Part shown: positions 2,807 through 45,449 of the stretch, one piece after another
Numbering within the stretch: position 1 is the stretch's first letter
Layout: each line of letters opens with the position of its first letter
Made by a program: the position numbers and the translations under genes
Origin: an uncultured Piscirickettsiaceae bacterium
Lineage (GTDB): Bacteria; Pseudomonadota; Gammaproteobacteria; GCF-002020875
Reading direction: 5' to 3'
Assembly: GCA_964416755.1 (NCBI GenBank)
Contig: CAYQFH010000006.1
Coordinates: 1 to 47,023, forward strand
DNA: 47,023 nt
The notes under the pieces: model-generated
Told to the model about the DNA's origin: nothing
The model's database searches: none
The model's input: only the letters and a program-made list of their open reading frames with translations

Positions 2807-3244
2807 ATGGATAATGGTCGCTACAGCGTTGGAGTTTTGATCGCGGTTCTGCTCTCCCTGTTTGCTCTGCCAGTTGTTGCAGAGGAGGAAGAGGATCCTC
2901 CGGTCATCATCAGTGAGTATCTTGCGTTGGGAAAAGAGCCATTCAAGGTCAATCTGAGTGGCAAGGGGGAGCATGTGATGGTGCTACATGCGCAGGTTTA
3001 TGTTACCACCCAGCGTGCCAAGGATGGCATCATCTTGCATCTGCCCAAGATCCAGAATGACGTGCTGGAGTTGTTGGGAGAGCAGACCTACAAGAAGATG
3101 AAGAAGACCAAGCACAAGAAGAAGCTGCGCAATAAGGTGTTGAAGCTGATTCGCAAAGTGATGGAACAGCGTGAAATTTTGAACAAGCCGAAGAAGCAGG
3201 AAGAGGTGGCAGAGGTTATCTTTACCCAGGTACTGCTTCAATAG
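2807..3244 (+). CDS. FliL-family flagellar basal-body-associated membrane protein (FliL-like)
   Basis: N-terminal TM helix (VGVLIAVLLSLFALPVV). Pattern Y-LALGKEPFKVNL...VMVLHAQVYV...LPKIQNDVLELLGEQT...KKKLRNKVLKLI...VAEVIFTQVLLQ follows the FliL family layout (YxxL-x-FxVNL, LPxxRxxLLxLL, and C-terminal V-x-V-x-FT-x-F/L-hydrophobic-Q). Assignment is by eye only. Confidence 0.55.
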   Translation: MDNGRYSVGVLIAVLLSLFALPVVAEEEEDPPVIISEYLALGKEPFKVNLSGKGEHVMVLHAQVYVTTQRAKDGIILHLPKIQNDVLELLGEQTYKKMKKTKHKKKLRNKVLKLIRKVMEQREILNKPKKQEEVAEVIFTQVLLQ

Positions 3245-4677: not shown

Positions 4678-4693
4678 TGGTATGTTTGTTGCT
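4678..4693 (+). promoter_or_regulatory. Sigma-54 (-24/-12) promoter upstream of fliE
   Basis: TGGTATG-TTTG-TTGCT. GG and GC have the canonical spacing of consensus TGGCAC-N5-TTGCW. Lies in the fleR-fliE intergenic region. Confidence 0.6.
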
Positions 4694-6897: not shown

Positions 6898-7907
6898 TGG
6901 CTGAGCCGGATATTAGTCGTTTTTCAGGCATTGAACGTACTGCGGTTCTGCTGATGGCGCTGGGTGAGGACTCTGCCGCATCGGTTTTGGCAAAGATGGA
7001 TCCGAAGGAGGTTCAGGAGCTGGGCATGACCATGTCCACGCTCAAAAATGTGACCACTGACGAGTTGCGAGGTGTGCTGGGAGCATTTATCAATGACACC
7101 AAGGGCATCACCGCAATGGGGATGAACTCGGAAGACTATATTCGCAATGTGCTCTCCAAAACGTTGGGAGGAGACAAGGCGGATAGTCTGCTCAACCGGA
7201 TGAGTATGGGTACCAGCGCCAATGGATTGGAAGCCCTGAAGTGGATGGATGCCCAAGCGGTTACCGAGATGATCCGTAATGAACACCCTCAGGTGATTGC
7301 CGTGGTACTCAACTTTCTGGAAGATGAGCATGCTGCAGAGGTCATTGGTGGTTTCCCCAAACGCCTGCAGATGGATGTCATGTTGCGTCTTGCATCGGCT
7401 GAAGGTATTCAGTCGGATGCGCTGATTGAATTGAATGAGGTCTTTGACAAGGTGGCCTCCTCCAGTGGACACACCTCCAATGAAGTGGGTGGCGTTTCGA
7501 CTGTCGCCAATATTCTCAACTATGTTCAGGGTGGTATTGATCAGGATATTCTGGCGGGCATCGAAGAGGTTGATCCTGAGCTGCGTCAGGAGATCGAAGA
7601 CCAGATGTTTGTCTTTGATGATCTCGTAGGCGTGGATGATCGTGGTATACAGGCGATTCTGCGTGATGTGCCTACAGAGAAGCTGGCAGTTGCCCTCAAG
7701 GGGGCAGATGATGGTGCCAAGGATAAGTTTATCGGTAACATGTCCAAACGTGCGGCAGATATGATGCTGGAGGATATGGAGGTGATGCCGCCAATGAAAC
7801 TCAGCGAGGTGGAAGCTGCGCAGAAAGAGATTATCGCAATCGCCAAGAAGCTGGCTGAGGATGGCACCATTGCCCTGGGTGGCGCAGGTGGTGAGGAGTA
7901 CGTCTGA
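6897..7907 (+). CDS. fliG: Flagellar motor switch protein FliG
   Basis: Full-length FliG pattern (GIERTAVLLMALGED.AA.VL..M...EVQ; C-terminal MSKRAADMMLEDME...EVEAAQKEII). Start overlaps the fliF stop (TAATG). Confidence 0.95.
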   Translation: MAEPDISRFSGIERTAVLLMALGEDSAASVLAKMDPKEVQELGMTMSTLKNVTTDELRGVLGAFINDTKGITAMGMNSEDYIRNVLSKTLGGDKADSLLNRMSMGTSANGLEALKWMDAQAVTEMIRNEHPQVIAVVLNFLEDEHAAEVIGGFPKRLQMDVMLRLASAEGIQSDALIELNEVFDKVASSSGHTSNEVGGVSTVANILNYVQGGIDQDILAGIEEVDPELRQEIEDQMFVFDDLVGVDDRGIQAILRDVPTEKLAVALKGADDGAKDKFIGNMSKRAADMMLEDMEVMPPMKLSEVEAAQKEIIAIAKKLAEDGTIALGGAGGEEYV

Positions 7908-8884
7908 TGCAGTGTACCAAGAAAAATGTGGTCTCATTGATTCGAGGAGATGAGAATCATGTGGCTTCTGCGACGGCATGGGAAGCACCCGATATTCTAT
8001 CGGTTGTCGATCAGCAGTCAGAGGAGCCTGAGCTGACTGAAGAGGAGATTACGCTCCAAAGGGCCTATGAGGAGGGCCTGGCCAAGGGGCTGGAAGAGGG
8101 GCGTGCACAGGGGTTTGAGCAGGGAAAGGCGGAAGGCTTTGAGGCAGGGAACAGTGAGGCGCGACAGCAGGTTGAAGAGCAGGGGCGCCAACAACAGGAG
8201 GCATTCGGAGCACAGGCAGAGGAGACTCTGAATGGGCTCAATGCACTGGTTCATGCTTTGCAGAATCCTTTGGAGAACCAACTGGATGAGACTGTCAATC
8301 GTGCAATTGCAACCTTGGTACATCAAGTCTCCACTCAGGTGATCAAGAGTGAGTTGGAGATTAATCCTGAACATATTGTCACCGTGGTCAAAGAGCTGTT
8401 TCAGCAACTTCCAATGACGGATCGTGAAGTGCGTTTTCATCTTCATCCAGAGGACAAGGCGCTGTTGGAGTCCGGACTTCAACTCTCTTCCGGTGCATTT
8501 CAGTGGCGTATGGAGTCTGACGAGCAGATCGCCCGTGGGGGTTGCCATGTGGAATCTCACAACTTTAGTGTGGATGAGACTGTAGAACAGCGGCTGGAAC
8601 AGTCGGTGCGTAAAGTATTTGGCCTCTCCTCGGAAGAGCTGGCTGCTCTCAATGAAGAGGGACAGTCAGAGATTGAAGACGATACTGTGGCAGAAGAGAC
8701 AGAGTCTGATGTGGATAGCGGCGACGCTGATGAGGTTAGTGAGTTGGATGAGCATCCAGACGTCGAGGGTGATGAAGCTGCTGAGCAGGCTCTAGAGGCC
8801 CCAGAGACCGTGGCGGCGGAAGAAGTGCCTTCTTCGATGGAAGCAGAGCAGCAACCAGCGGAGACCTCTGCGGAGGCGAACTAA
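7907..8884 (+). CDS. fliH: Flagellar export ATPase regulator FliH, with a long acidic C-terminal tail
   Basis: Glu/Gln/Ala-rich coiled-coil centre (EGLAKGLEEGRAQGFEQGKAEGFEAG) and a FliH C-domain ending near GGCHVESHNFSVDETVEQRLEQSVRKVFG. About 85 extra Asp/Glu-rich residues follow. Start is coupled to the fliG stop. Confidence 0.8.
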   Translation: MQCTKKNVVSLIRGDENHVASATAWEAPDILSVVDQQSEEPELTEEEITLQRAYEEGLAKGLEEGRAQGFEQGKAEGFEAGNSEARQQVEEQGRQQQEAFGAQAEETLNGLNALVHALQNPLENQLDETVNRAIATLVHQVSTQVIKSELEINPEHIVTVVKELFQQLPMTDREVRFHLHPEDKALLESGLQLSSGAFQWRMESDEQIARGGCHVESHNFSVDETVEQRLEQSVRKVFGLSSEELAALNEEGQSEIEDDTVAEETESDVDSGDADEVSELDEHPDVEGDEAAEQALEAPETVAAEEVPSSMEAEQQPAETSAEAN

Positions 8885-10251
8885 TGGCTGTTGAACAGAG
8901 TGTGCGACTACAGCAGACACTGGATCGACTGAGTCAACGTGCAGCAGAGGAGCAGGAGCCTGTTATCAAGGGGCGTCTGCGGCGCATGGTTGGACTTACA
9001 CTGGAAGCAGTGGGCTGCCAGGCCCCGTTGGGGGGGCGCTGTATGGTTGAACTTGCGGATGGTTCGCAAGCAGAGACCGAGGTTGTCGGATTCAATGATG
9101 AGAGCCTCTACCTGATGCCGGTGGGCGATCTCCAAGGGGTTACTCAGGGTGCGCATGTTGTTCCAAGTAGCAAGCAGTTTCAGGTCCCGGTAGGGGACGG
9201 TCTGTTGGGACGTGTGGTGGACGGTGCCGGTAATCCGATTGATGGCAAAGGCCCAATTGATGCCTTTGAGCACCGTTCACTCAATGGACGGCAAGTCAAC
9301 CCCCTGAACCGTTCTGTAATCAGTGAACCACTGGATGTGGGAATCCGTGCGATCAACTCCCTGCTTACGGTAGGGAAAGGGCAACGCATTGGCCTGTTCG
9401 CAGGAAGCGGTGTCGGCAAGAGTGTTCTGCTCGGGATGATGACACAATCAACGGCTGCTGATGTGGTCGTGGTAGGGTTGATTGGAGAGCGTGGTCGAGA
9501 GGTGCAGGAGTTTATCCAGAAAATTCTGGGTGAGGAGGGGATGCAGCGTGCGATTGTGGTGGCAACACCGGCAGATGACTCTCCGCTAATGCGGATGCAT
9601 GGTGCCATGTTGACCCACACGATTGCCGAGTACTTCCGGGATCAGGGCAAGGATGTACTGATGCTGATGGACTCTCTGACCCGTTTTGCGATGGCGCAAC
9701 GTGAGATCGGTCTCTCTGTTGGTGAACCCCCAACTACAAAAGGGTATCCCCCTTCGGTATTTGCCAAACTGCCCAAACTGGTTGAGCGTGCCGGCATGGG
9801 AGGTGAAAAGGGTGGATCAATCACTGCTTTTTATACCGTGCTGGTTGAGGGGGGTGATCATGATGAACCGATTGCTGATGCAGCCCGAGGCATTTTGGAC
9901 GGTCACTTTGTGATGTCCAGAGAGATTGCAGCCAGTGGCCGTTACCCTGCGATTGATGTGGAGCTGTCGGTCAGTCGTGTAATGAATGATGTGGTTTCAC
10001 CGGAACATCAACAGCTGGCACAACACTTCCGTCAAATCTACGGGCGGTATAGCCAGAATGAAGATCTGATCAGTGTAGGTGCCTATCAGCGAGGGAGTGA
10101 TCCGCGTATTGATGAAGCGATCAGCTACTATCCATTGATGAATCAGTTTTTGAGTCAATCACGTGGCGAGGCAGCGGATATAGCGACCAGTGTCACCACA
10201 CTGGTACAGCTGTTTCAGAGCCAGCAGCAAGCACAACAGGCGGCTGGTTAA
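8884..10251 (+). CDS. fliI: Flagellum-specific ATPase FliI
   Basis: Walker A GSGVGKS and Walker B VLMLMDSLTRFA. F1/T3SS ATPase family pattern throughout. Confidence 0.95.
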   Translation: MAVEQSVRLQQTLDRLSQRAAEEQEPVIKGRLRRMVGLTLEAVGCQAPLGGRCMVELADGSQAETEVVGFNDESLYLMPVGDLQGVTQGAHVVPSSKQFQVPVGDGLLGRVVDGAGNPIDGKGPIDAFEHRSLNGRQVNPLNRSVISEPLDVGIRAINSLLTVGKGQRIGLFAGSGVGKSVLLGMMTQSTAADVVVVGLIGERGREVQEFIQKILGEEGMQRAIVVATPADDSPLMRMHGAMLTHTIAEYFRDQGKDVLMLMDSLTRFAMAQREIGLSVGEPPTTKGYPPSVFAKLPKLVERAGMGGEKGGSITAFYTVLVEGGDHDEPIADAARGILDGHFVMSREIAASGRYPAIDVELSVSRVMNDVVSPEHQQLAQHFRQIYGRYSQNEDLISVGAYQRGSDPRIDEAISYYPLMNQFLSQSRGEAADIATSVTTLVQLFQSQQQAQQAAG

Positions 10252-10772: not shown

Positions 10773-12122
10773 ATGGAAGCGACACTCAACCCTCTGCTAT
10801 CTACCTCCAAGCAGGTGCAATCAGGCCTTTCTGCGGCAACCAGCGATCTGTTCTCGATAGATTCGGGTAATCTAATGAAGAATCAGTCTACAGAAGACTC
10901 CTTTTCTGATCTGCTGCAAGAGAAAATTGATAAAAAACGTTCTGCCAAGAGAGAGGAGCGGAATAATTTGCCGCTTGGTGGCAAAGAGGAGTCAATTCAG
11001 CCAGAGAGAAATAGGAAGTCTGAGTTGAATAAAGAGGATTCAGTGGTAAAGCAGGCGGAGAATTCTCGTGAAGGAGAGACAGAAAAGCAGAGATCCGCAG
11101 AGCAAGCCGGTCACAGTAAGGAGCAGTCTGAACAGACAGCGTCTGATGCGGAGCCAAATGCGGCAGATGGTGCTGAGGATGGTAGTGATGTAACTGCTGA
11201 AGGATTGGTATCAGATCAGATACTAGTGGCAGAAGATGGAGAGGCCTCAGAAACCGATAACCCTGAAGCAATGCTGAATGCATTGCAGCAGCCTGTTTCC
11301 GGGAATCAACAAGAGACTGTTGCGGTTGTCTCTCCGCAAGCTGCAGCCAACCAACAACACAACGTAACTGAGGAGGCCGTCGAGCTGGATGAAGCCCTGA
11401 TGGAAGAAGAGATGGTGAAACGGGCATCCGCTGAGCAGGGGCGTGGCAGAAGTCCGAACCTTCCTCCTGAGCTTCAGAAAGGGGACCAGCAGATTCACCT
11501 GAATGAAGAGATGAACCTCAAATCCGCAATGAATGCACTAAAAGAGCAGCATGCTGCGGGTGCAATGGCAAGTGGACAGGGGACGGGAGGGGAGCAAACT
11601 TCCCAGAATGGAGGCAATCAGTCCATGAATTCACTCTTCTCGGCAGCTGATCCGGTCAATTCTGCAGAGCGCCCTGTCCAGTTGAAAGGGATGACGGTGA
11701 CTCCGCAGTCGAGACAGTGGTCCTCGGAACTGGGTGAACGTATCCTCTTCATGGCTGGAAAGAAGATTCAGAGCGCAGAGATCCGGCTCAATCCACCCAA
11801 TCTGGGATTGATGGAGGTGAAACTGGCGATCAGCGGTGAGCAGGCGCAACTGGTTTTCCAGAGTGGCAATGCCAATGTGCGTGATGTGCTGGAATCGGCG
11901 GTACCCCGTATTCGTGAGATGCTGGAGCAGAACGGAATCACTCTGACTGATGTTACGGTCTCGGATGGTAAGCAGCAGCAAGAGAGTGCTGAGTCTGGAG
12001 AAGGCGAACAGCGTAGAGGGGATGGCAGCCTTGGCGGTTTGGGAGAAGGTGTTGATGAAGAGGTTGTGCCCATCTCCTCAATGGCAGTCGATCGAATCGG
12101 CCTGGTCGATTACTATATCTAA
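10773..12122 (+). CDS. fliK: Flagellar hook-length control protein FliK
   Basis: Disordered Glu/Gln/Ser-rich N-terminus. C-terminal Flg_hook domain (AEIRLNPPNLGLMEVKLAISGEQAQLVFQSGNANVRDVLESAVPRIREMLEQNGITLTDVTV). Position after fliJ. Confidence 0.82.
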   Translation: MEATLNPLLSTSKQVQSGLSAATSDLFSIDSGNLMKNQSTEDSFSDLLQEKIDKKRSAKREERNNLPLGGKEESIQPERNRKSELNKEDSVVKQAENSREGETEKQRSAEQAGHSKEQSEQTASDAEPNAADGAEDGSDVTAEGLVSDQILVAEDGEASETDNPEAMLNALQQPVSGNQQETVAVVSPQAAANQQHNVTEEAVELDEALMEEEMVKRASAEQGRGRSPNLPPELQKGDQQIHLNEEMNLKSAMNALKEQHAAGAMASGQGTGGEQTSQNGGNQSMNSLFSAADPVNSAERPVQLKGMTVTPQSRQWSSELGERILFMAGKKIQSAEIRLNPPNLGLMEVKLAISGEQAQLVFQSGNANVRDVLESAVPRIREMLEQNGITLTDVTVSDGKQQQESAESGEGEQRRGDGSLGGLGEGVDEEVVPISSMAVDRIGLVDYYI

Positions 12123-14368: not shown

Positions 14369-15439
14369 TCAGCGAGCATTATAACTATAAGGCTTGATTG
14401 TATTCGATTGTTCCATGGATTTCAGAATATTACGCTCAATCTGTTGCTGCTGCCGTGTCAGTCGTTCCAACTGGCTATTCATTGTATCCAACTGCCGGGG
14501 TGAAGTGGGGGCTTGCGTCGGTTGAGGTTGGGATGATTGCTGTTGTGCAATCTTCTCAACCAGTGCCTGCAGACTACTTTGTGCGTGTGCCAATGATTGC
14601 TGTTGTCTGTTCAGATTGGTGAGCTGTTCCAGCAGTGTCTCCGGTAGAGTCGGGGTTGCAGGAGTTTGCGTGTCGACTCTGTCGATGCTCTTTGCCATTG
14701 AGGATTGAGCAGAACGGATCTGCTCGTATTGTGCCATCAGTTGATCCAGTTTCTCCTCCAGTCGCTTGTTGGAACTGGAGGTAACATTGGTGCGAGACTG
14801 CTGTTGTTGCACTTGTTCAAACTGTACCTGTTGCTGCTGAATTTGTGTCAGTTGTTGAGTCATCAGGTCGAAGCCTGAGAGATCTATCGTTGGGGGAGCA
14901 CGGCTGGAGATCTTCTTGATCTCTTCAGTGATCTGCCTAGTGTACTCTTCCTGGTTCTGTTGCCGGGTCAGCAGGGTAGCAATTTGTTGATTTTGATCGA
15001 CCAGCTGCTGTTGCTGTGTTTTTTGAATCTGTTGCAGTGTTTCAGTGACGCTATCTGGCAGTGAGATCTGTGCAGAGGGAGCAGGGAGTGTGGCAATTGA
15101 TTGCTGTGTCTGCTCCAGCCGATTCTCAATTTCTGACAGTTGATTGATGACTGGATGGAGATTTGTGGATGTCTGACTGCGTTGACGGTTAGCAATCAGA
15201 TCGAGGGTTGCCTGTATCTGATTGAGCTGCTCAATATTGGGTAGGTCGTCCGATGAGGTGGTGGCCCGGGATGGGTTGAACGGTTTTCCGCTCAGCGCAG
15301 CAAGCTGTTGGTTCAACTGCTGCTGACCATTGCGTACCTCAAGAATGAGCAGGGTAAACAGTGTGGCAAGGCTGAACAGCCCCAAGGTGATAAAGAGCAC
15401 CAGTGAGGTGAACAGACCTTTGGGTTGTGTGTTGCTCAT
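14369..15439 (-). CDS. Gln-rich coiled-coil protein with an N-terminal membrane anchor (unknown function)
   Basis: TM helix (LFTSLVLFITLGLFSLATLFTLLILE), then ~320 aa of Gln/Leu/Thr-rich predicted coiled coil. No recognisable family. Lies between the flgP-like and flgT-like genes on the same strand. Confidence 0.55.
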   Translation of the reverse strand: MSNTQPKGLFTSLVLFITLGLFSLATLFTLLILEVRNGQQQLNQQLAALSGKPFNPSRATTSSDDLPNIEQLNQIQATLDLIANRQRSQTSTNLHPVINQLSEIENRLEQTQQSIATLPAPSAQISLPDSVTETLQQIQKTQQQQLVDQNQQIATLLTRQQNQEEYTRQITEEIKKISSRAPPTIDLSGFDLMTQQLTQIQQQQVQFEQVQQQQSRTNVTSSSNKRLEEKLDQLMAQYEQIRSAQSSMAKSIDRVDTQTPATPTLPETLLEQLTNLNRQQQSLAHAQSSLQALVEKIAQQQSSQPQPTQAPTSPRQLDTMNSQLERLTRQQQQIERNILKSMEQSNTIKPYSYNAR

Positions 15440-16042: not shown

Positions 16043-16690
16043 TTACGGGAATGTGATTCCCTGGTTATATCCTTCCGGGAATTGTGATCCTCGTCCACGT
16101 CGTTTCTTCGGACCATCTCCCAGCAGTTCATTCAGCTTCTGTTCGATACGCTTGAGGTCTGCTCTCATGTTGCGTACCTGTTTACCGGCCTGTGAGGCGC
16201 CGCGAACAGAGCGTTTGATCGATGCTGTGTCACTATTGAGGTTTTCAGCAAGCTGGCGCAGGATCAGTTGTGTGTCTGTCAGCATCATTGTGATTTCTGA
16301 AAGATCACCGTCTTCACCTTCATACTCATCTTCGTATTCGCCATCTTCTTCGTCACCTTCCTCATCGGACTCTTCTTCATCCTCATCGGACTCCTCTTCA
16401 TCCTCATCGGCATCTTCGTCCTCTTCATCTTCGTTAGGGAGGAGAACACCTGCCAGGGCGGAGATCTGTTCACCCATACCCGGAACCACCTCGCCGTGCA
16501 GTTCGGTAATTTTGGTGCTCATCTCCTCGACCATGGCACCATCGCCACCGGAAGGGAAGAGGATCAGATAGACCAGAATTGCGATATTGAGGACTACAGA
16601 AAGCGCGCCCAGGATCAGTGGAACCAGACCACCGCCGCCACCGCCGCCTTCTTCCTCTTCGCTCTCGTCGTTTGCTTCGTCTTTAGCCAT
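16043..16690 (-). CDS. Poly-acidic single-pass membrane protein (unknown function)
   Basis: Acidic N-terminus, Gly7 run, and TM (LVPLILGALSVVLNIAILVYLILF). ~45-residue Asp/Glu block (DEEDEDADEDEEESDEDEEESDEEGDEEDGEYEDEYEGEDGD). Basic helical C-terminus (KRSVRGASQAGKQVRNMRADLKRIEQKL...KKRRGRG). No recognisable family. Confidence 0.55.
   Translation of the reverse strand: MAKDEANDESEEEEGGGGGGGLVPLILGALSVVLNIAILVYLILFPSGGDGAMVEEMSTKITELHGEVVPGMGEQISALAGVLLPNEDEEDEDADEDEEESDEDEEESDEEGDEEDGEYEDEYEGEDGDLSEITMMLTDTQLILRQLAENLNSDTASIKRSVRGASQAGKQVRNMRADLKRIEQKLNELLGDGPKKRRGRGSQFPEGYNQGITFP
16360..16422. repeat. Three tandem 21-bp repeats encoding the (D/E)7 heptads of the acidic protein
   Basis: cctcatcggactcttcttcat / cctcatcggactcctcttcat / cctcatcggcatcttcgtcct are head to tail. 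On the coding (minus) strand they give DEDEEES-like heptads. Confidence 0.8.
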
Positions 16691-16749: not shown

Positions 16750-18081
16750 TTAAAAGAGCTCTACATCGCCATCCTGCATGGAGGACTTGGAACTGCTGCT
16801 GCTGGATGCCAACGAGCCGCGTGCCTGTGAAATTGCCCCTTGCAGCGTACCCAATTGCTCCTGACAGTCGCTGCCACTACTGACACTGCCCTGTAGCTGG
16901 TGGACACTGTTGTCAATCTGATCTGCAAACTGCTGCAGATTGTTGGTCTGGCCGTCGAGCTGTCCCAGAATCTGTGAGACGATATCCTCGAACTGGAGAG
17001 AGCGTACTGCGATCGATACATTGTCATCCACCTGGGTAATCATTCCCGAGATCTGCTCAAGCTTGGTAGAGACGGCATTGTTCATCTTCTCCAGGTCATA
17101 CATCATGTTGTCTACGGTAGATTTGGAGGTGAGCGCTTCGTTCACGTCTTCTGTGGCCACTTTGGAGACGATGGAACGTACATCATCAATAGTGGTTTTG
17201 GCCTGTTCTGCCTGGGCACGAATCTGCTCATTGAGCTGGTTGGAGTGGAGAGAGAGCTTTCTCACCTCATCGGCAACCACCGCGAATCCTCGACCGGCAT
17301 CACCGGCACGTGCGGCCTCAATGGCTGCATTCAGTGCCAGCAGGTTGGTCTGATCCGCAATGCTCTTTACATCGACCAGCAGGGTGAAGATCGCCTCGAT
17401 CTGTCCCACCATCTCATCAATCTTGCCGACGGTTTCAGTACTGCGCTGTCCCACATTGGAGAGCTGTGCAACCAGCTTCTCCATCACCTGGGTGGTTTCG
17501 TTGGAGAGCTGCTGGAAGCTGAGGGCCTGTGAGTCTGAACTGCCTTCACCGGAAGCCAGGCTTTCGATCAGAGAGACGACAACATCGTGCTCTTGTTGGG
17601 TGTGGTCATTCAGGTTATTGAAACTATTGTTAAGGTTGGTGATTGCATCCTTGATGATGTCCCGGATGTTGGAGGTTTTCTCCTGAATGGAGGAGGATTC
17701 ATGGCGCAGGTACTGTCCAATCTCTGTTGTGATACCGCTGATCTGAGGCGTGATATTGACAGCTTCTGCCATCGGCATTGCAATGGGTTCGGGGACTGGC
17801 TCTGGAGCAGGTGCGGACGCCTCGGCCTCCTGAGCAGGTGTCTGTGCTGTGGTGGCTGCTTGCTTGCTATTCAGCAGTGCCATAATGGTCCATGCAGTTG
17901 CAGTGATCACCGTTAGAATAATTGGCACGATACCCGCTCCGAGCAGAATCTCCGAGATGATCGCAATTATGGTGATGAGCAGGGCAGGCCAGTAAAATTC
18001 TATGAAATTACTGCTGTTCTGTTGTGCACTGTTGCTGTTCGACTTATCCATAATAGTTACGTATGTTCTATGCTGTTTCAA
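16750..18081 (-). CDS. Methyl-accepting chemotaxis protein with a TM hairpin and no periplasmic sensor domain
   Basis: Two adjacent TM helices ([40 protein letters not shown]), then a Pro/Ala linker and long helical region. MCP tip signature [44 protein letters not shown] start at 18081 is supported by a gaggaag RBS. Confidence 0.8.
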
Positions 18082-18157: not shown

Positions 18158-18184
18158 TTATCGGCGCGGCTTTTTTTCTCTTTA
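18158..18184 (-). promoter_or_regulatory. Sigma-28 (FliA) promoter for the MCP/acidic/flgP/Gln-rich/flgT-like operon
   Basis: The minus strand reads TAAA-gagaaaaaaagccgc-GCCGATAA. This is an exact match to the core TAAA-N15-GCCGATAA consensus, ~75 nt upstream of the MCP start. Confidence 0.65.
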
Positions 18185-18276
18185 GAAATCAATTGGTTCT
18201 AAGGTTTTTCTTAGTGCGTGATAAGAGTGTTCTCATACTCCGTCACATTGTTATATTTCTCGCTGCAACCCTTTAT

Positions 18277-18291
18277 GCAAGGCGTATGCCA
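18277..18291 (-). promoter_or_regulatory. Candidate sigma-54 promoter (minus strand) upstream of the sigma-28 promoter
   Basis: The minus strand reads TGGCAT-ACGCC-TTGC with canonical GG-N10-GC spacing. It is ~195 nt upstream of the MCP start and just downstream of the flhB-like stop. Confidence 0.4.
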
Positions 18292-18325: not shown

Positions 18326-18598
18326 TTATGAAATCTGTTTGCCGGAGAGTTGATAGGCAAATGCGATAATTTCGGCAACGGCAATATAGAGATTTTCCGG
18401 GACTTCGCTGCCCAGCTCAACGGCAGAGAGCAGCTGAACCAGTTCCGGTTCTTCATAAAGTGGAACATCATGCTCTTTTGCCAGAGCAATAATCTGCTCG
18501 GCAATGACCCCTTTTCCGGTTGCGGTAACCTTCGGGGCGCCAGTACCGTCATATTGGAGGGCAACAGCGAGGTCGAGCGATTTCTCTCTCTTTTCCAT
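18326..18598 (-). CDS. Stand-alone FlhB C-terminal (FlhB_CC-like) domain protein, EscU/YscU/HrcU switch-protein family
   Basis: 90 aa. LDLAVALQYDGTGAPKVTATGKGVIAEQIIALAKEHDVPLYEEPELVQLLSAVELGSEVPENLYIAVAEIIAFAY matches the FlhB/YscU cytoplasmic domain downstream of the NPTH cleavage site. There is no TM region and no NPTH motif. Confidence 0.8.
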   Translation of the reverse strand: MEKREKSLDLAVALQYDGTGAPKVTATGKGVIAEQIIALAKEHDVPLYEEPELVQLLSAVELGSEVPENLYIAVAEIIAFAYQLSGKQIS

Positions 18599-19672
18599 CT
18601 ATGCCTTGATTGAGAATCCGGTGGTGGTTGAGCTGGGTTCAGGAGCCACATCATGAATATTCTTCTGACGGCTGAAGAGGGTACCGGGTTGCAGTCCCGC
18701 AATCGATAGAGCTGACTCCAGCGTTTCGATCTGCTCCGTTATCAGAGCGCTGGTCTCTTCCTTTGCTGTCAGAAAGTGGATGTCCAACTGGTCGTTATGG
18801 TGAATGGCGTGAATCTCCATTTCACCCAGTTGAGGAGGATTGAGCTGAATCTCGATATGCCAGCGGGACCGGTTCTCATCTTCACTCTCCTGCTGTTGAC
18901 GGAATTTCAGCGCGGCCTGCTGTGGGTTGTCCTCAACCATAAAGGGGATCTCTACCTGCCAGCTTCGCTGTGTGGAGTCCCGACTTCCCTGGTCTGGTTG
19001 TGAGGAGGGAGAACCTTGCGCCTGACTCTGTGCGCTTTTGAGTTGATTGAGCTCAATGCGTGCAATCATCGATTCAATCTGTTGTAGCGCCTTCTGTTGT
19101 CCGGGTTGATTGAGCAGTTTGGCTTTGAGCTGCAGCAGTTGCATCTTCAGATCCCCTTTAAGGGACTCTGTTCTGTTGTGGAGCAGGTTGTTCTCCATAA
19201 AGGTTCCGGACTTGCCAATCTGCTGTTTGACCACTTTGGGGTTGAAGAGTTGAGTGATGGTCGGGAGTTGTTGCAGGATCTGCTGAATTGCCATCTGTCC
19301 GCCACTGCCCGTGGTTTGGCTCTGCATCAGCTGCCCCAGATTCTGCAGTGCCTGGGGAAGTGGTAACTGTTTGGGGTAGATTTTCTGTCCGAGTGCATCG
19401 GTCGGAGAGGTGGCAGGCTTGCTAATGGTCAGCGTGATCTGTGGTTGTAGCTGGGCCACAGTCAGTTTCAGTTGTTCACCACTACGCAATGGAAGATCGG
19501 TTTTTGCACTGAGTGTCCCTTGTGGTAGTTGCAATTCTGCCTTTCCACCACGACTGAAGAGCACCGTGGCCTGCAGTTGATCCCCCAGCTGCAAGCGTGG
19601 CAGAGAGCCAGTCTGGTTGGTGACTGCCAGTGTCTGACTGGTTGCGGTTACGGGGGGGGCGGTGATGTTCAA
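18599..19672 (-). CDS. FliK-like protein (second Flg_hook-domain protein)
   Basis: C-terminal Flg_hook-type domain (WHIEIQLNPPQLGEMEIHAIHHNDQLDIHFLTAKEETSALITEQIETLESALSIAGLQPG). Gln-rich middle region. Its stop directly abuts the flhB-like start. Apparent TTG start with no clear RBS. Confidence 0.65.
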   Translation of the reverse strand: MNITAPPVTATSQTLAVTNQTGSLPRLQLGDQLQATVLFSRGGKAELQLPQGTLSAKTDLPLRSGEQLKLTVAQLQPQITLTISKPATSPTDALGQKIYPKQLPLPQALQNLGQLMQSQTTGSGGQMAIQQILQQLPTITQLFNPKVVKQQIGKSGTFMENNLLHNRTESLKGDLKMQLLQLKAKLLNQPGQQKALQQIESMIARIELNQLKSAQSQAQGSPSSQPDQGSRDSTQRSWQVEIPFMVEDNPQQAALKFRQQQESEDENRSRWHIEIQLNPPQLGEMEIHAIHHNDQLDIHFLTAKEETSALITEQIETLESALSIAGLQPGTLFSRQKNIHDVAPEPSSTTTGFSIKA

Positions 19673-19795
19673 TGGGGTTGGTATTCTTTTTGCAGCAGGG
19701 GGTTACTAAAAGGGAGTGGACGTTTTTATGGCATAAGACTTGGGTAAGGCGTCAGTAGGAATTTACTCAAGTTTAGGACGATACAGTGATCCATG

Positions 19796-19822
19796 TAAAG
19801 TTCTAACCAACCCAGACGATAA
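19796..19822 (+). promoter_or_regulatory. Sigma-28-type promoter upstream of the acidic triple-motif protein
   Basis: TAAA-gttctaaccaaccca-GACGATAA. Spacer is 15 nt, with one mismatch to GCCGATAA. Lies ~75 nt upstream of the ATG at 19896. Confidence 0.5.
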
Positions 19823-19895: not shown

Positions 19896-21011
19896 ATGGC
19901 AGAAGATCAAGAGAACGGGGTTGAGGCTGAAGCAGAAGAGGAGCTCGATATTGATGCACTTCTTGATGATGTGGCAGAAGGTGGAGAAGGTGGCCCTGAA
20001 GATGTAGAAGATGAAGCAGCAGTAGATGTCGATAGCGTACTGGATGATGCAGTTGAAGATGCGCCTGCAGAGGGGGCTGATGAGATTGTTGCTGAAGATG
20101 ATATTGATGCCATTATGGATGATGTGGCATCAGAACCTGAAACGCCTGCAGAGGAAGAAGTGATCGATGAGATTACAGAAGTGGCTGATGAGCCAGCTGC
20201 TCCGACAGCACCTGCTGAATCACCTGCTCCGGCAGCAGCGCCATCAACAGGGGGGGCATCTTCTGCGGAGCTGGATGGAGTGGTCGCACGGCTGAATGCT
20301 GCAGTAGAGAAGAGTGAATTTATTACCCAGCAACTGGAGGAACGCCACTCTGCGGCAGAACGGTTTGTCAAAGGGGTGAAAGAGGCCTCTAAAGAGCTGA
20401 AGGCAGATCAGGCATCAATCGGTGATGTGGAGAAGAACAGCAAACTGGGGATGATCCTGGGTGGAGTTACCCTGCTGCTCTCCGGTGCGGTACTGGGGCT
20501 GGTAGTCACTGAAGACAAGGAGACGATGCTCTCTCAGGTTGAAACGGTCAGTGCTTCGGTCGATGGCGTGGGAGAAAATGTCAACCTGATTGCGGGTCGT
20601 ATCTTTGAACAGCAGCAGCAGATGGATGAGGCGATGGCCTCTTTTGCCTCTCTGAAAGAGGCGTTGGAGAAGCTGGAGAGTCAACCTGCACCAGCCCCTG
20701 CACCAGCGACACAGGATCCTGTTATGGTAGAGGGTGGTGATGGTGTAGAGGGAGGAGAAGCCGCCATGCCGGAAGTTGCAGTCGACTTCACAGTGGTTGA
20801 AGAGAAGATTGACGAAACCCAGCAGAAGATTCTTGCACTGCATGAGCAGATCAAGAGCAGTGAAGCGCATCTGCCGGAGTTGAAAGCCTACCTTGAACAG
20901 TTGAGTGTTGGACAGCAGCAGCTCAGGCAGGAGCAGGAGAGGTTAATGCAGCTGCAACAGATGATGCTGGAAGCGAAAGAGCGAGGGAAGACAATCTATA
21001 AATTCCCGTAA
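19896..21011 (+). CDS. Single-pass membrane coiled-coil protein with three N-terminal acidic D-x-D-A-L-L-D-D repeats (unknown function)
   Basis: N-terminal ~80 aa carries three ~26-aa repeats headed by LDIDALLDDV, VDVDSVLDDAV and DDIDAIMDDV. Then a Pro/Ala linker, a helical region, a TM (LGMILGGVTLLLSGAVLGLVV) and a C-terminal Gln-rich coiled coil. No recognisable family. Confidence 0.6.
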   Translation: MAEDQENGVEAEAEEELDIDALLDDVAEGGEGGPEDVEDEAAVDVDSVLDDAVEDAPAEGADEIVAEDDIDAIMDDVASEPETPAEEEVIDEITEVADEPAAPTAPAESPAPAAAPSTGGASSAELDGVVARLNAAVEKSEFITQQLEERHSAAERFVKGVKEASKELKADQASIGDVEKNSKLGMILGGVTLLLSGAVLGLVVTEDKETMLSQVETVSASVDGVGENVNLIAGRIFEQQQQMDEAMASFASLKEALEKLESQPAPAPAPATQDPVMVEGGDGVEGGEAAMPEVAVDFTVVEEKIDETQQKILALHEQIKSSEAHLPELKAYLEQLSVGQQQLRQEQERLMQLQQMMLEAKERGKTIYKFP

Positions 21012-21040
21012 TACGATAACGGTGGAGTGAATCAGAAAAT

Positions 21041-21071
21041 GCCGGTGGGGCAACCCTCACCGGCATTTTTT
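21041..21071 (+). terminator. Rho-independent terminator
   Basis: gccggtgggg-caa-cccTcaccggc stem-loop (~10 bp, GC-rich) followed by attttttgt. Confidence 0.75.
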
Positions 21072-21078
21072 GTGTGGC

Positions 21079-21094
21079 TGGCATACTAATTGCT
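21079..21094 (+). promoter_or_regulatory. Sigma-54 promoter upstream of flgB
   Basis: TGGCAT-ACTAA-TTGCT with canonical spacing, ~50 nt upstream of the flgB ATG. Confidence 0.65.
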
Positions 21095-40167: not shown

Positions 40168-42453
40168 ATGTTTGGCATCTTGGATGAGACTTTTGATGGG
40201 GACGTAATCTGGATGAATCTTCGTAGTGTATTACTGGTGGATGATGAGCAGCAAATTCTGGATACCTACCGTGTAATTCTGTCGGGGGAGGAGAGAGACC
40301 ATACACTGGATGAGTTGTCAGCCATAGTGGGGTTGACCGATGAGCCGGATGTGGAGGAGAGGGAAGTTTTCAAGTTGATTGAGGCAACCCAGGGGGAGGA
40401 AGCGCTGGAGAAGCAACGACAGGCGATGGCAGAGGGTAGTGCGCCGACGGTTGCGCTGGTGGACATGCGGATGCCGCCAGGCATTAACGGGTTGGAGACC
40501 TCGATTCGTCTGCGGCAACAGGATCCTTCAATTTTTATCATCATCATCACGGCGTACAGTGATGTTGAAAGCGATACCATGCAGCTGGCACTGCAGTATG
40601 ACTTTATGTTTCTGAAAAAGCCGGTTATTCCTGAAGAGCTCTATCAAATTGTGCGCAATGCGGCCAATGCCTACCAGAGCGGTGAACGGGGTATGGTCAA
40701 AAAAGAGCTTGATCCACCGCTTTATCTGGATGACCTCAGAAAACAGCAGGTATTGCTGGTCGATGATGAACCGATGATGCTGAAACTGGCAGAGGCGATT
40801 CTGGTGCAATATCTGCAAGTGACGGTGATCACTGCAAGTAGTGGGCAAGAGGCGCTGCAGTTGGCTCATAACCTCCATCCTGATCTGATTCTGCTCGATG
40901 TAAAGATGTCGGGTATGGATGGCTATACGACCTGTCAGGCGCTAAAGGCTGCAGACACAACCAAAGATATTCCGGTGATCTTTCTCACCGCGCAAAGTGG
41001 TGATGAACAGGTGATTAAAGGATTTCAGATGGGAGCAGTGGACTATGTCAGCAAGCCCTTCTCGAAACCGATTCTGGTGGCGAGAGTCTCCACCCATCTT
41101 AATCTCTACAAACAGAGCCGACGTCTGAAGATGCTCTCCACTACAGATAGCCTCACAGAGCTACCCAACCGTGCTGCATTTGAGACCTACCTGGAGATGC
41201 GCCTGCAGAGTGCGGCTGAGGAAAAAGAGAAGAGAGAAGATGGATCTATACCGCCTCATAGTTATTTTGCGCTGCTCTTTATCGATCTGGATCGCTTCAA
41301 GCCGGTCAATGATGAATTGGGGCATGAGGTAGGAGATCAGCTGCTGCAGGCTGTTGCCGGACGCTTGCGCAAGAATGTACGAGAGATGGATCTGATCTCA
41401 CGGATCGGTGGTGATGAGTTCGTGTTGATGGTAGGGGGAGATGTCACTGTTGAACATGTGGCTCTGGTGGCGGATAACCTGGTGGATGTTCTATGCCAGC
41501 CGTTTCATATCGAAGGGCATGCTATCCAGATTGGAGCCAGCGTCGGTAGTGCAATCTTTCCGATTGATGCTGAGGATGGCGAAACGCTACTGCACCATGC
41601 TGATATGGCGATGTATGAGGCCAAGGCGAAGGGGAGAAATTGTCACGTCTCTTTTTCCAGTGATTTTAAACAGCATCTTGAACAGCAGGAGCAGTTGATT
41701 CGTGATTTGAGAGTGGCTTTGGAAGAGGGACAGTTCAAGTTGCTGTTTCAGCCACGGTTTGAGTTGGAGTCACGGAAGGTCATTGGTGTCGATGCGCTGT
41801 TGCGCTGGAACCATCCACAGCGTGGATTGTTGGAGGCGAAGGAGTTTATTGATGTTCTGATGGAAGGGCGGCTGGGAGAGTTGGCGGAGCGTTCCGTGCT
41901 GAGGATGGTCTGTCAACAGATCAAGGAGTGGGAGGAGAGGTTCGGAGAATCTCCGGTGATTACGGTCAATCTCTCTGAGGATCGTTTTAATCTGCGGGAT
42001 CTCGATCAACATATCTTGAATATAGTGGAAGAGATCGGGCTGTCCGAAAAGGGGATGTCGGCGCTTGAATTTGATGTGAGTGAGGCGTTGCTACTGAAAC
42101 AGCCGGAGTTTGCCATGGAGCAGTTGCAAAGGCTGAACCAATTGGGGACAAAAATTGTGTTGGGTGATGCCTGTGAAAAGAGTTTATCGATAGAGTGGTT
42201 AATACGGTTCCCGTTGAGTGGTCTCAAACTCAGCCGTTCCATGGTAGAACGGATTGGTGATGTTCAGGGTGAGCAGGTATTGAAGGCCACGCTCTGTGTT
42301 GCCAGAGAGTTGAATTACCCGGTGGCTGCCGAGGGAATCGAGAGCGAAGTACAACTTGCTTTTCTGCAGCAGGTGGGGTGTAGTGCTGGCTCAGGGTATC
42401 ATCTACACACTACGGTAAGCGGTGATGAGATCGCGGCACTGATCTCCGGATAA
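40168..42453 (+). CDS. Dual-receiver GGDEF-EAL protein (intact GGDEF with I-site, degenerate EAL)
   Basis: REC1 (VLLVDDEQQ...VALVDMRMPPGINGLE...KKP, with an insertion). REC2 (VLLVDDEPMM...LILLDVKMSGMDG...KPF). GGDEF domain (NRAAF...DLDRFKPVNDELGHEVGD...REMDLISRIGGDEFV). EAL-like domain with DALLRW, LGDACEKS and KLSRS in place of EALLRW, DDFGTG and K-x-D. The start could be the MNLRS at 40213. Confidence 0.85.
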   Translation: MFGILDETFDGDVIWMNLRSVLLVDDEQQILDTYRVILSGEERDHTLDELSAIVGLTDEPDVEEREVFKLIEATQGEEALEKQRQAMAEGSAPTVALVDMRMPPGINGLETSIRLRQQDPSIFIIIITAYSDVESDTMQLALQYDFMFLKKPVIPEELYQIVRNAANAYQSGERGMVKKELDPPLYLDDLRKQQVLLVDDEPMMLKLAEAILVQYLQVTVITASSGQEALQLAHNLHPDLILLDVKMSGMDGYTTCQALKAADTTKDIPVIFLTAQSGDEQVIKGFQMGAVDYVSKPFSKPILVARVSTHLNLYKQSRRLKMLSTTDSLTELPNRAAFETYLEMRLQSAAEEKEKREDGSIPPHSYFALLFIDLDRFKPVNDELGHEVGDQLLQAVAGRLRKNVREMDLISRIGGDEFVLMVGGDVTVEHVALVADNLVDVLCQPFHIEGHAIQIGASVGSAIFPIDAEDGETLLHHADMAMYEAKAKGRNCHVSFSSDFKQHLEQQEQLIRDLRVALEEGQFKLLFQPRFELESRKVIGVDALLRWNHPQRGLLEAKEFIDVLMEGRLGELAERSVLRMVCQQIKEWEERFGESPVITVNLSEDRFNLRDLDQHILNIVEEIGLSEKGMSALEFDVSEALLLKQPEFAMEQLQRLNQLGTKIVLGDACEKSLSIEWLIRFPLSGLKLSRSMVERIGDVQGEQVLKATLCVARELNYPVAAEGIESEVQLAFLQQVGCSAGSGYHLHTTVSGDEIAALISG

Positions 42454-44012: not shown

Positions 44013-45449
44013 ATGAAATATTCACAACAGATGGAACGTCGTCTGCAGGTGCTGGAGCAACATCTGCAGGAGGAGAATCCGGTACTGCTGGATGTGGTCA
44101 AAAGCTTTCGTCAGCTTGATCGGGTGGCGCATCAGATGGGTTTTATCTCGCCGGATGACTCCTATGCGACTCATGTCTCCTGGTGGCCGCTGATCTCCGT
44201 ATTGGGTACTTTTTCTGCGGGTAAATCCAGTTTCATAAACAGCTATTTGGGGGTTAAACTTCAACAGACAGGTAATCAGGCGGTGGATGATAAATTCACT
44301 GTGGTGACCTACACTCAGGACAGTAAACCACGCACCATTCCCGGGCGTGCACTGGACGCTGACCCCCGTTTCCCGTTCTTCCATATCAGTCACGATATCG
44401 AGGAGGTGGAGTCCGGAGAGGGGGATCGAATTGATGCCTATTTGCAGCTCAAGACGGCACCGAGTGATGTATTGAAAGGTCGCATTCTGATCGACTCTCC
44501 GGGGTTTGATGCCGACCAGCAGCGTACCGCAACACTGCGTATTACCGACCGTATGATTGATCTCTCTGATCTGGTGCTGGTCTTCTTTGATGCGCGCCAC
44601 CCTGAGCCGGGGGCGATGAAAGATACTCTACAGCACCTGGTTGCCGAGGCGAGACAGCGCCATGACTCCAACAAATTTCTCTACATTCTCAACCAGATCG
44701 ATGTGACTGCCCGGGAGGATAATCCTGAGGAGGTGGTGGCGGCCTGGCAGCGGGCGCTCTCCCAGCAAGGGCTCACCACGGGTCGCTTCTTCCGTATCTA
44801 CAATCCTGAGGTGGCCTTTCCGATTGAGGATGAGGCTTTGCGTGAGCGTTTTGAGCGCAAGCGGGATGAGGATCTTTCTGAGATTCAGGATCGTGTCGAC
44901 CAACTCGATATTGAGCGGGCCTACCGTATTGTTGGTATGTTGACCCACACTGCACGCTCCATTCAGGAGCGTTGGTCCCCGAAACTGAAATCATTGGGGA
45001 GGGAGTGGCGGCACAAGGTGCTGGTGGGGGATGCTGTGGCCGCTGGGGTGGTGGTAGTGGCGCTGCTGCTGTTGAGTTTGCAACAGGGGTGGTGGGATGG
45101 CCTCAGTTTTCAGCCTCCATTTGAACTGTCTATTACACTGTTTGCGGGAGGTGCTGTATTGGCGCTGTTGGCTCACTTTGGAGTACGGCGCTGGATTGCC
45201 AACCGTATTGTCAAACGGATGCGAAGAGAAGGTGGGGAGACACCCTCCTCGGAGATTGAAGGGGTGGTAGCTGCATTCCGTCGTAATACGCGGCCCTGGT
45301 TCTCGATCTTTCACCCCTTCCCGGTGGGTTGGAACCTCTTCTCACGCAAGAAGATCAGTCAGGTATTGCTGGATGCGGACGACTACATTCAGTCACTGAA
45401 TGATCGCTTTACCGACCCTTCCGGAAAAAGAGAGATTGAGCAGAACTGA
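44013..45449 (+). CDS. Dynamin-family-like membrane-associated GTPase
   Basis: G1 GTFSAGKSSFINSYLG, G3 LIDSPGFD, G4 LNQID. Helical stalk-like region and two C-terminal hydrophobic segments (AAGVVVVALLLLSL, ITLFAGGAVLALLAHF). Confidence 0.6.
   Translation: MKYSQQMERRLQVLEQHLQEENPVLLDVVKSFRQLDRVAHQMGFISPDDSYATHVSWWPLISVLGTFSAGKSSFINSYLGVKLQQTGNQAVDDKFTVVTYTQDSKPRTIPGRALDADPRFPFFHISHDIEEVESGEGDRIDAYLQLKTAPSDVLKGRILIDSPGFDADQQRTATLRITDRMIDLSDLVLVFFDARHPEPGAMKDTLQHLVAEARQRHDSNKFLYILNQIDVTAREDNPEEVVAAWQRALSQQGLTTGRFFRIYNPEVAFPIEDEALRERFERKRDEDLSEIQDRVDQLDIERAYRIVGMLTHTARSIQERWSPKLKSLGREWRHKVLVGDAVAAGVVVVALLLLSLQQGWWDGLSFQPPFELSITLFAGGAVLALLAHFGVRRWIANRIVKRMRREGGETPSSEIEGVVAAFRRNTRPWFSIFHPFPVGWNLFSRKKISQVLLDADDYIQSLNDRFTDPSGKREIEQN

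Follow-up and report, generated by a model that had tools for sequence, protein, structure and literature searches.

The window analysed here, a stretch of 47,023 nucleotides (nt) of contig CAYQFH010000006.1 from an uncultured Piscirickettsiaceae bacterium (assembly GCA_964416755.1), carries a flagellar gene cluster of the polar type, in which domain scans revealed genes of FleQ, FleS, a FliL-like protein, FleR, the set fliF–K and a methyl-accepting chemotaxis protein (MCP). Ahead of the rod and hook genes of this cluster, an open reading frame at 19896..21011 of the forward strand encodes a 371-residue protein of an unnamed orphan family, predicted to be a bitopic protein of the inner membrane. 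Its start codon is backed by the N-terminal signature MA[ED][ED]QEN, kept in 12 orthologues. The acidic N-terminal tail of the protein contains three copies of a short peptide similar to the N-terminal peptide of FliM and the C-terminal peptide of CheZ, both of which bind phosphorylated CheY (CheY-P), and docking of CheY-P or of a CheY-like receiver is the leading hypothesis for the role of these copies.

Motif 1, the universal FliM_N/CheZ_C-like peptide of the family, occupies residues 14–29 (EEELDIDALLDDVAEG; 19935..19982, forward strand), with the core LDIDALLDD at residues 17–25 (19944–19970). Motif 2 (VDVDSVLDD, residues 43–51, 20022..20048) and motif 3 (DDIDAIMDD, residues 68–76, 20097..20123), the latter a lineage-variable copy, were located on the same strand by motif scanning and comparison of the DNA repeats. 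The motif DNA forms a direct repeat of three copies with spacings of 78 and 75 nt (26 and 25 residues), and copies 1 and 3 share 87% identity across 30 nt; the three acidic N-terminal repeats described in the first-pass annotation of this DNA are present exactly where it had placed them. Residues 1–125 comprise 26 Glu and 20 Asp (37% Asp+Glu, net charge −46). The core D-[IVL]-D-[ASGD]-[LIVM]-[LIVM]-D was counted in 100,000 composition-preserving shuffles of this segment, which contained 0.0012 copies on average against the three observed, and two or more copies appeared in 0/100,000 shuffles. The three motifs are far beyond chance and are not a by-product of the acidic composition. A six-frame scan of the whole window for the core [DE][IVL]D[ASGD][LM][LMIVF] detected it in no further real gene.

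Conservation was assessed in an alignment of 12 full-length orthologues with a lowest identity of 42%, down to which motif 1 is kept, as the first-pass annotation would lead one to expect. Invariant positions are M1, A2, E15, E16, D18, I19, D20, L22, D24 and A27; L17, L23, V26 and G29 come close to invariance. Mean column conservation is 0.90 in motif 1 and 0.39–0.46 in the linkers flanking the motifs, while motifs 2 and 3 reach 0.62–0.63 and the blocks of the transmembrane (TM) helix and coiled coil 0.71–0.78. A motif occupies the position of motif 2 in 10 of the 12 full-length orthologues. The threefold repeat, present in this protein, is no feature of the family: copy number ranges from one to five, and motif 1 alone is universal. 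In P0014 and P0015, the most distant members, a single copy, E[LV]DIDALLDEVAGG, is kept close to the N-terminus, where FliM too has its peptide. P0010 and locus L013 each have four copies, of which two are identical, and locus L010 has five; these lineages gained their additional copies by recent duplication, and the expansion was independent in different lineages. Conserved islands in a hypervariable, indel-rich tail, together with the lineage-specific expansion of copy number, point to a real, conserved short linear motif, functional and under selection, in a new architecture.

A further difference within the tail was seen between the near-identical loci L005 and L013, in the form of a 16-residue (A/E)P repeat expansion in the Pro-rich linker. 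The linker is therefore polymorphic in length over short spans of time.

A word-indexed search of 5.8 billion proteins retrieved 13 relatives. The hidden Markov model (HMM) of the family, run against 1.84 billion cluster representatives, gave seven matches, all of them family members or fragments, and revealed among these representatives no remote homologue and no other carrier of the N-terminal module. In their source records the relatives are named 'hypothetical protein' at most; the GTDB-representative carriers are metagenome-assembled genomes (MAGs) titled 'uncultured Piscirickettsiaceae bacterium' or 'Gammaproteobacteria bacterium'. For the whole protein no family was found at cut-off in Pfam or NCBIfam, with weak matches of the coiled-coil type only in the Pfam scan (E ≤ 1). 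The best sub-threshold match, TIGR04211 SH3_and_anchor (29.5 bits vs a cut-off of 65), is confined to residues 292–365 of the coiled coil. PDB sequences contained no match to residues 1–100 (phmmer, E ≤ 10), and Rfam gave no match in the window. Two short forms devoid of the acidic tail were set aside as artefacts: the reading frame of P0011 is open to the contig end, and P0009, identical in the alignment to the C-terminal part of P0007, appears to be an internal-start call.

In E. coli K-12 the N-terminus of FliM, MGDSILSQAEIDALLNG, contains SQAEIDALLNG, and the C-terminus of CheZ, ...ASQDQVDDLLDSLGF, includes the peptide SQDQVDDLLDSLGF. Motif 1 (EEELDIDALLDDVA; LDIDALLDDVA) contains a contiguous I-D-A-L-L identical to residues 11–15 of E. 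coli FliM, and its D-I-D-A-L-L (residues 18–23) corresponds to E-I-D-A-L-L of FliM (residues 10–15), so that the helical core of the EIDAL motif is present. With residues 205–213 of CheZ, motif 1 shares [IV]-D-x-L-L-D-x-[LV]. The likeness to both peptides, already pointed out from the sequence at first pass, is therefore borne out at the level of individual residues. In the structure of CheY with the FliM16 peptide, I-D-A-L-L are the helix residues contacting CheY, including an Asp that pairs with Lys119 of CheY. EIDAL is the CheY-P site of FliM (PMC6946799; bioRxiv 10.1101/2022.04.21.489128).

Similar to FliM, FliY and some FliN proteins, the present protein belongs to the flagellar regulon and has its motif near the N-terminus in a disordered segment, predicted here to be cytoplasmic. 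It shares the I-D-A-L-L core with FliM, with Asp instead of the preceding Glu, and the documented partners of FliM, CheY-P and FlhG, are candidates here. Unlike FliM, which is a component of the C-ring, the present carrier is a bitopic coiled-coil protein of the membrane, and the motif occurs in one to five tandem copies. The middle (CheC-like) and SpoA domains of FliM are absent from the protein (Pfam, E ≤ 1), and no NCBIfam model of fliM was matched. The arrangement is also like that of CheZ, in which a flexible linker joins an acidic amphipathic helix to the long helical part of the protein, and the logic of a tethered peptide raising the local concentration of CheY-P would be the same. However, the CheZ peptide is C-terminal, whereas the peptide considered here is N-terminal and has no terminal Phe, and the CheZ domain, a four-helix bundle with the catalytic D-x3-Q, was not matched in Pfam or NCBIfam. 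We also considered whether the cytoplasmic helix has a catalytic D-x3-Q like that of CheZ, and ruled this out, as the Gln columns vary among orthologues; with no conserved D-x3-Q pair on this helix, we see no evidence of phosphatase activity.

The anatomy of the protein was deduced from hydropathy, the orthologue alignment and an AlphaFold2 model built from a 13-sequence alignment; with a mean predicted local distance difference test (pLDDT) score of 57.5 and a predicted template modelling (pTM) score of 0.20, the model was used for secondary structure only. Its sole helices in the otherwise disordered tail (residues 19–28, 49–52 and 70–78) fall on the three motifs. Residues 79–122 (20130..20261) form a disordered linker (pLDDT <50), acidic and then rich in Pro and Ala (the Pro/Ala stretch covers approximately residues 99–122), which is hypervariable and contains indels among orthologues. 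It is followed by a conserved juxtamembrane helix, predicted to be cytoplasmic (residues 123–175, 20262..20420; AlphaFold2), with a conservation of 0.71 and an invariant V-K-G signature, and by the single TM helix (residues 183–204, 20442..20507; hydropathy and AlphaFold2). The hydrophobic core of the latter, MILGGVTLLLSGAVLGLVV (residues 186–204), is the one hydrophobic stretch of the protein, with a Kyte–Doolittle value of 2.35 and means of 2.1–2.6 in the orthologues.

Beyond the membrane, the first predicted periplasmic coiled-coil helix (residues 210–262, 20523..20681; AlphaFold2 and orthologue alignment) holds the most conserved block, SVDGxxExxxLIxxRIFEQQxQMD. A disordered linker (residues 263–298, AlphaFold2) separates it from the second, Gln-rich helix, also predicted to be a periplasmic coiled coil (residues 299–367, 20790..20996), with a Gln fraction of 17% and pLDDT block means of 60–94, mostly 84–94. 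The protein ends in IYKFP (20994..21008), of which YKFP is invariant in the orthologue alignment. Residues L, I, V, M or F fill 60% of the heptad a/d positions in residues 123–175, 87% in 210–262 and 63% in 299–367, against 11%, 11% and 16% of the other positions. With heptad periodicity in all three long helices, the protein is probably an oligomeric coiled coil, which would multiply the valency of the motifs.

No signal peptide was found, and the N-terminus (MAEDQENGVEAEAEEE) contains no hydrophobic segment. The 20 residues before the TM helix contain three to five Lys and Arg, and the flank after it one or two, a bias found in 12/12 full-length orthologues. An N-in/C-out topology, with the acidic tail cytoplasmic and the coiled coil periplasmic, is predicted from this positive-inside bias and because a 185-residue N-terminal tail would be hard to translocate without a signal peptide. 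The succession of Pro/Ala linker, single TM helix and Gln-rich coiled coil, as well as the cytoplasmic N-terminus without signal peptide, agrees with the first-pass annotation; hydropathy, AlphaFold2 and the heptad count recover the former, and the charge bias of all orthologues supports the latter.

The string DGVGENVN (residues 223–230, 20562–20585) is nearly invariant among orthologues. It was considered as a CheC/CheX-like D-x3-E-x2-N site and ruled out, since it lies in a predicted periplasmic heptad coiled coil, and the resemblance to CheC, CheX and FliY is probably coincidental. In the phosphatase active-site consensus of these proteins (D-x3-E-x2-N), the spacing of the downstream Pro is unlike that of DGVGENVN.

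Two promoter-like sites precede the gene. The first, of the sigma-28 (FliA) type, was found by pattern scan at 19796..19822 (forward strand) and reads TAAAGTTC-N11-GACGATAA, ending 73 nt before the ATG; the sigma-28 consensus is TAAAGTTT-N11-GCCGATAA. The exact form TAAA-N15-GNCGATAA occurs twice in the 47 kb window, against 0.33 occurrences expected even with one mismatch, and the other occurrence precedes the adjacent MCP gene. The relaxed pattern TAAAG-N-[GT]NC[GT]AT is present upstream of the orthologue in 5/7 distinct loci. At the level of sequence, the gene is assignable by this site to the sigma-28 (FliA) regulon. The second site, of the sigma-54 type, TGGTATTCTTTTTGCA (TGGTAT-N5-TTGCA; pattern scan, 19679..19694, forward strand), lies 201 nt upstream of the ATG. 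Six sites of the pattern TGGYAY-N5-TTGCW were found in the window against 0.39 expected, all of them in or near the flagellar cluster; by position, those at 4678, 10709, 18276 (reverse strand), 19679, 21079 and 22057 precede the fliF region, fliK, the MCP gene, the present gene, flgB and flgD. A sigma-54-type site on the same strand lies upstream of the orthologue in six of the seven distinct loci. At L018, the most distant locus, the 330 nt next to the orthologue contained no promoter-like sites. The sigma-28-type promoter reported at first pass is consequently present, but the gene is not purely late, as the sigma-54-type site is conserved as well; the gene is probably in both the middle (RpoN) and the late (FliA) flagellar classes, an assignment that by itself does not separate a role in chemotaxis from a role in assembly.

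The MCP gene at 16750–18081 (reverse strand) has the same pair of sites, namely, a sigma-54-type TGGCAT-N5-TTGCA at 18276–18291 and an exact sigma-28-type TAAA-N15-GCCGATAA at 18158–18184, both on the reverse strand. Because the pair is shared, co-regulation of the two divergent genes is suggested. Downstream of the gene, an 18-bp hairpin followed by a U-run (21033..21072, forward strand; dG −29.3 kcal/mol, z = −6.2) forms a predicted intrinsic terminator, and hairpin-like sequences, read by eye, follow the stop codon in orthologous loci too. The flgB operon has a separate sigma-54-type promoter-like site, TGGCATACTAATTGCT (pattern scan, 21079..21094, forward strand), which was found downstream of the orthologue in 7/8 loci scanned. 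Since a strong terminator follows the gene and flgB has its own sigma-54-type site, the gene appears to be monocistronic, forming its own transcription unit.

With the partial exception of P0008, the gene lies between a fliK-like/flhB-C-like pair and flgB wherever both flanks of the locus were retrieved, P0014 and P0015 included. The pair is divergent from the gene and consists of a stand-alone FlhB C-terminal-domain protein of 89 residues (18326–18598, reverse strand; TIGR00789 flhB_rel, 90 bits, below cut-off) and an adjoining second FliK-like protein with a Flg_hook domain (18599–19672, reverse strand), the canonical fliK being located at 10773–12122. It is present in all orthologous loci retrieved with the upstream flank. 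Downstream lies the flgB rod and hook cluster, recognised by the FlgB domain match and, for the remainder, by synteny with L001. In the P0008 lineage (L006), a hybrid kinase with PAS-HisKA-HATPase-REC domains (7445–9676, reverse strand) replaces flgB downstream, the only break of synteny seen. At L018, an additional open reading frame of 123 codons without NCBIfam match (9567–9938, forward strand) separates the fliK-like gene from the orthologue.

The opposite strand of the window carries genes of FlgT, an unknown protein, an LPP20 (FlgP-like) protein and another unknown protein, and a second MCP is also encoded in the window. Two conserved genes lie on the reverse strand inside the FlgT/LPP20 cluster: one of 355 residues (14369–15439), with no Pfam family and weak matches to SMC/DndD-like coiled coils, and one of 214 residues (16043–16690), with no matches. 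They may represent further uncharacterised components of the H-ring or outer disk. The FliL-family gene (2807–3244, forward strand) is located between a FleS-like kinase and a FleR-like sigma-54 activator, instead of beside fliM. Downstream of the cluster, a dynamin-family GTPase (44013–45449, forward strand) and a GGDEF-EAL protein (40168–42453, forward strand) are encoded; the latter gives two Response_reg matches (REC-REC by stretch count) and is another receiver-domain protein near the flagellar genes.

Taken together, these features make it probable that the gene encodes a bitopic, oligomeric protein of the flagellar regulon, whose disordered cytoplasmic tail offers EIDAL-type peptides to a soluble FliM_N-recognising protein. 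Docking of CheY-P, or of a CheY-like receiver, is the leading hypothesis for this partner, with a probability of roughly 40%; it is favoured by the likeness to both CheY-P-binding peptides, by the sigma-28 signal shared with the MCP gene and by a multivalency such as a tether or sink should have. According to this proposal, the protein would be a lineage-restricted single-pass inner-membrane protein of the flagellar regulon in the N-in/C-out orientation. Its periplasmic coiled coil ending in YKFP would probably oligomerise it and anchor it to some envelope or flagellar structure. On the predicted cytoplasmic side, a strongly acidic and disordered tail, about 120 residues long, precedes the conserved juxtamembrane helix and displays one to five, here three, helix-forming peptides [LV]-D-[IV]-D-[AS]-[LMI]-[LMV]-D-[DE]-V-A. 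These peptides mimic the helical core of FliM EIDAL and resemble the C-terminal peptide of CheZ, and their most likely mode of action would be docking to the alpha4-beta5-alpha5 face of CheY-P or of a CheY-like receiver. At the membrane, the oligomer would then be a multivalent tether, antenna or sink for CheY-P.

Several observations weigh against docking of CheY-P. The SQ prefix of the known peptides (LSQAEIDALL in FliM, SQDQVDDLL in CheZ) is absent, with E-E-E-L in place of L-S-Q-x in all orthologues, and this replacement speaks against simple equivalence with the FliM and CheZ peptides. Five isolated motif peptides matched no FliM or CheZ model at E ≤ 10, and their sole match, to xseB (E = 0.13), is spurious; profile methods thus link no motif peptide to FliM or CheZ and give the likeness no statistical support, as is expected at a length of about 10 residues. 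The conserved sigma-54-type site suggests expression already at the hook–basal-body stage, and not just together with the chemotaxis genes. Domain scans found no cheY in the window. Finally, partner specificity has to be considered. In B. subtilis, FliY and FliM both carry the EIDAL motif. FlhG of this bacterium binds FliY and not FliM (PMC12826062). The EIDAL core alone would accordingly not set partner specificity. In monotrichous and polar flagellates, EIDAL also binds the MinD-like ATPase FlhG (bioRxiv 10.1101/2022.04.21.489128; PMC12826062), and in S. putrefaciens the FliM motif is 'necessary and sufficient' for FlhG (bioRxiv 10.1101/2022.04.21.489128). This documented second ligand was missed in the first-pass annotation, which named CheY or another receiver protein, so that CheY-P has to share its place as candidate with FlhG.

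One alternative, which we regard as unlikely but still deserving attention, is that the protein is an accessory of the envelope or motor with its main job in the periplasm, where the coiled coil and YKFP would bind the stator, the H/T-ring or peptidoglycan-associated structures; the tail motifs would then bind another partner, such as the REC-like domains of FleQ/FleR, FliG, a stator loop or a polar hub. The most conserved blocks are indeed the juxtamembrane helices and SVDG...FEQQxQMD and not the tail as a whole, and the neighbouring genes are structural (flgB–L, FlgT, LPP20 of the FlgP-like type). Precedents are provided by the lineage-restricted membrane-bound motility regulators MotV/ZomB and MotW (PMC8789113), and by the acidic multivalent hubs HubP/FimV, which recruit many different clients (PMC12918733). 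Motif 1, however, is as conserved as the periplasmic blocks (0.90 vs 0.75–0.78) and matches the FliM_N core residue for residue, and the data of the present analysis suggest no alternative partner.

Somewhat less likely still, but the main rival to CheY-P docking, is docking or decoying of FlhG (FleN): the membrane protein would draw FlhG to the membrane or pole, or sequester it there, and would feed the state of assembly back onto flagellar number and the activity of FleQ/FlrA. The organism has the set typical of polar flagellates (FleQ, FleS/FleR, FlgT and the FlgP-like LPP20), and the conserved sigma-54-type site would provide expression during assembly of the basal body, when FlhG acts. 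A preprint on theoretical modelling has proposed an FlhG–FliM buffering complex as central to the control of flagellar number (bioRxiv 10.64898/2026.07.15.738709). On the other hand, the interaction between FliM and FlhG is weak in Vibrio (bioRxiv 10.1101/2022.04.21.489128). The sigma-28-type promoter and the likeness to CheZ_C point to chemotaxis, and domain scans detected no flhG in the window. We know of no report of CheZ_C binding FlhG.

That the D-x-D-x-L-L-D-D strings are compositional accidents of a generic acidic low-complexity region, as the strong acidity of residues 1–125 and the lack of any profile or PDB sequence match might suggest, is very improbable and effectively refuted by the conservation pattern, with invariant residues in motif 1 beside poorly conserved linkers, as well as being at odds with the shuffles, the independent expansion of copy number in different lineages and the coincidence of the AlphaFold2 helices with the motifs.

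Among other known systems, HubP/FimV possesses a LysM-like domain in the periplasm, a TM segment, an acidic cytoplasmic region and a C-terminal FimV TPR domain, and its acidic region recruits soluble clients, among them FlhG and components of the chemotaxis machinery (PMC12918733). The present protein shares with it a periplasmic anchor, one TM helix and a long, highly acidic, repeat-containing cytoplasmic region. Unlike in HubP/FimV, the order is reversed, with the acidic tail N-terminal and the periplasmic part C-terminal, and the protein is about four times smaller; LysM and FimV TPR domains are absent from it (Pfam, NCBIfam), and the family HMM search revealed no homology to HubP/FimV. MotV (ZomB) and MotW of Vibrio and Shewanella are lineage-restricted membrane-bound accessories modulating motor switching or speed, with genetic links to FliM, FliG and CheY-like domains (PMC8789113). 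The present protein is likewise lineage-restricted and membrane-bound; however, MotV and MotW differ in their domains (TPR/MIT; Ig, coiled coil and K-rich tail) and have no sequence similarity to it, no EIDAL-like motif has been reported for them, and their genes do not lie beside flgB.

With the defining domains looked for and absent, the protein is no member of FliM, CheZ, HubP/FimV or TIGR04211. Targeted literature searches brought up no membrane protein described as carrying an EIDAL-like motif, and no database record names the present protein, in accordance with the first-pass view that such a function is undescribed. To our knowledge, which includes the searchable papers, EIDAL has been described on C-ring proteins only (FliM, FliY and some FliN), with a look-alike on CheZ. 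What appears to be new here is a known type of docking peptide on a new carrier and in tandem. As a more far-reaching and tentative proposal, which we consider possible rather than probable, the protein would be an oligomeric membrane-anchored multivalent 'EIDAL decoy', competing with FliM for CheY-P and FlhG and representing a new class of flagellar accessory.

The impact of these findings is limited, as only a handful of uncultured Piscirickettsiaceae-like MAGs, of marine-type gammaproteobacteria, carry the family and the partner, like the localisation and the physiological effect, is inferred only. The chemotaxis signal universally enters the motor through EIDAL, which in polar flagellates also couples FlhG to assembly of the C-ring. 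If the proposed docking is true, some bacteria would have additional, tunable sites for CheY-P or FlhG near, but outside, the rotor, and could in this simple manner buffer, localise or sink the signal. Acting from outside the C-ring, a decoy of this kind could tune flagellar number and/or the sensitivity of motor switching, and evolution would adjust its capacity via the number of motif copies (1–5). The family represents a clean natural experiment in the evolution of copy number of a short linear motif.

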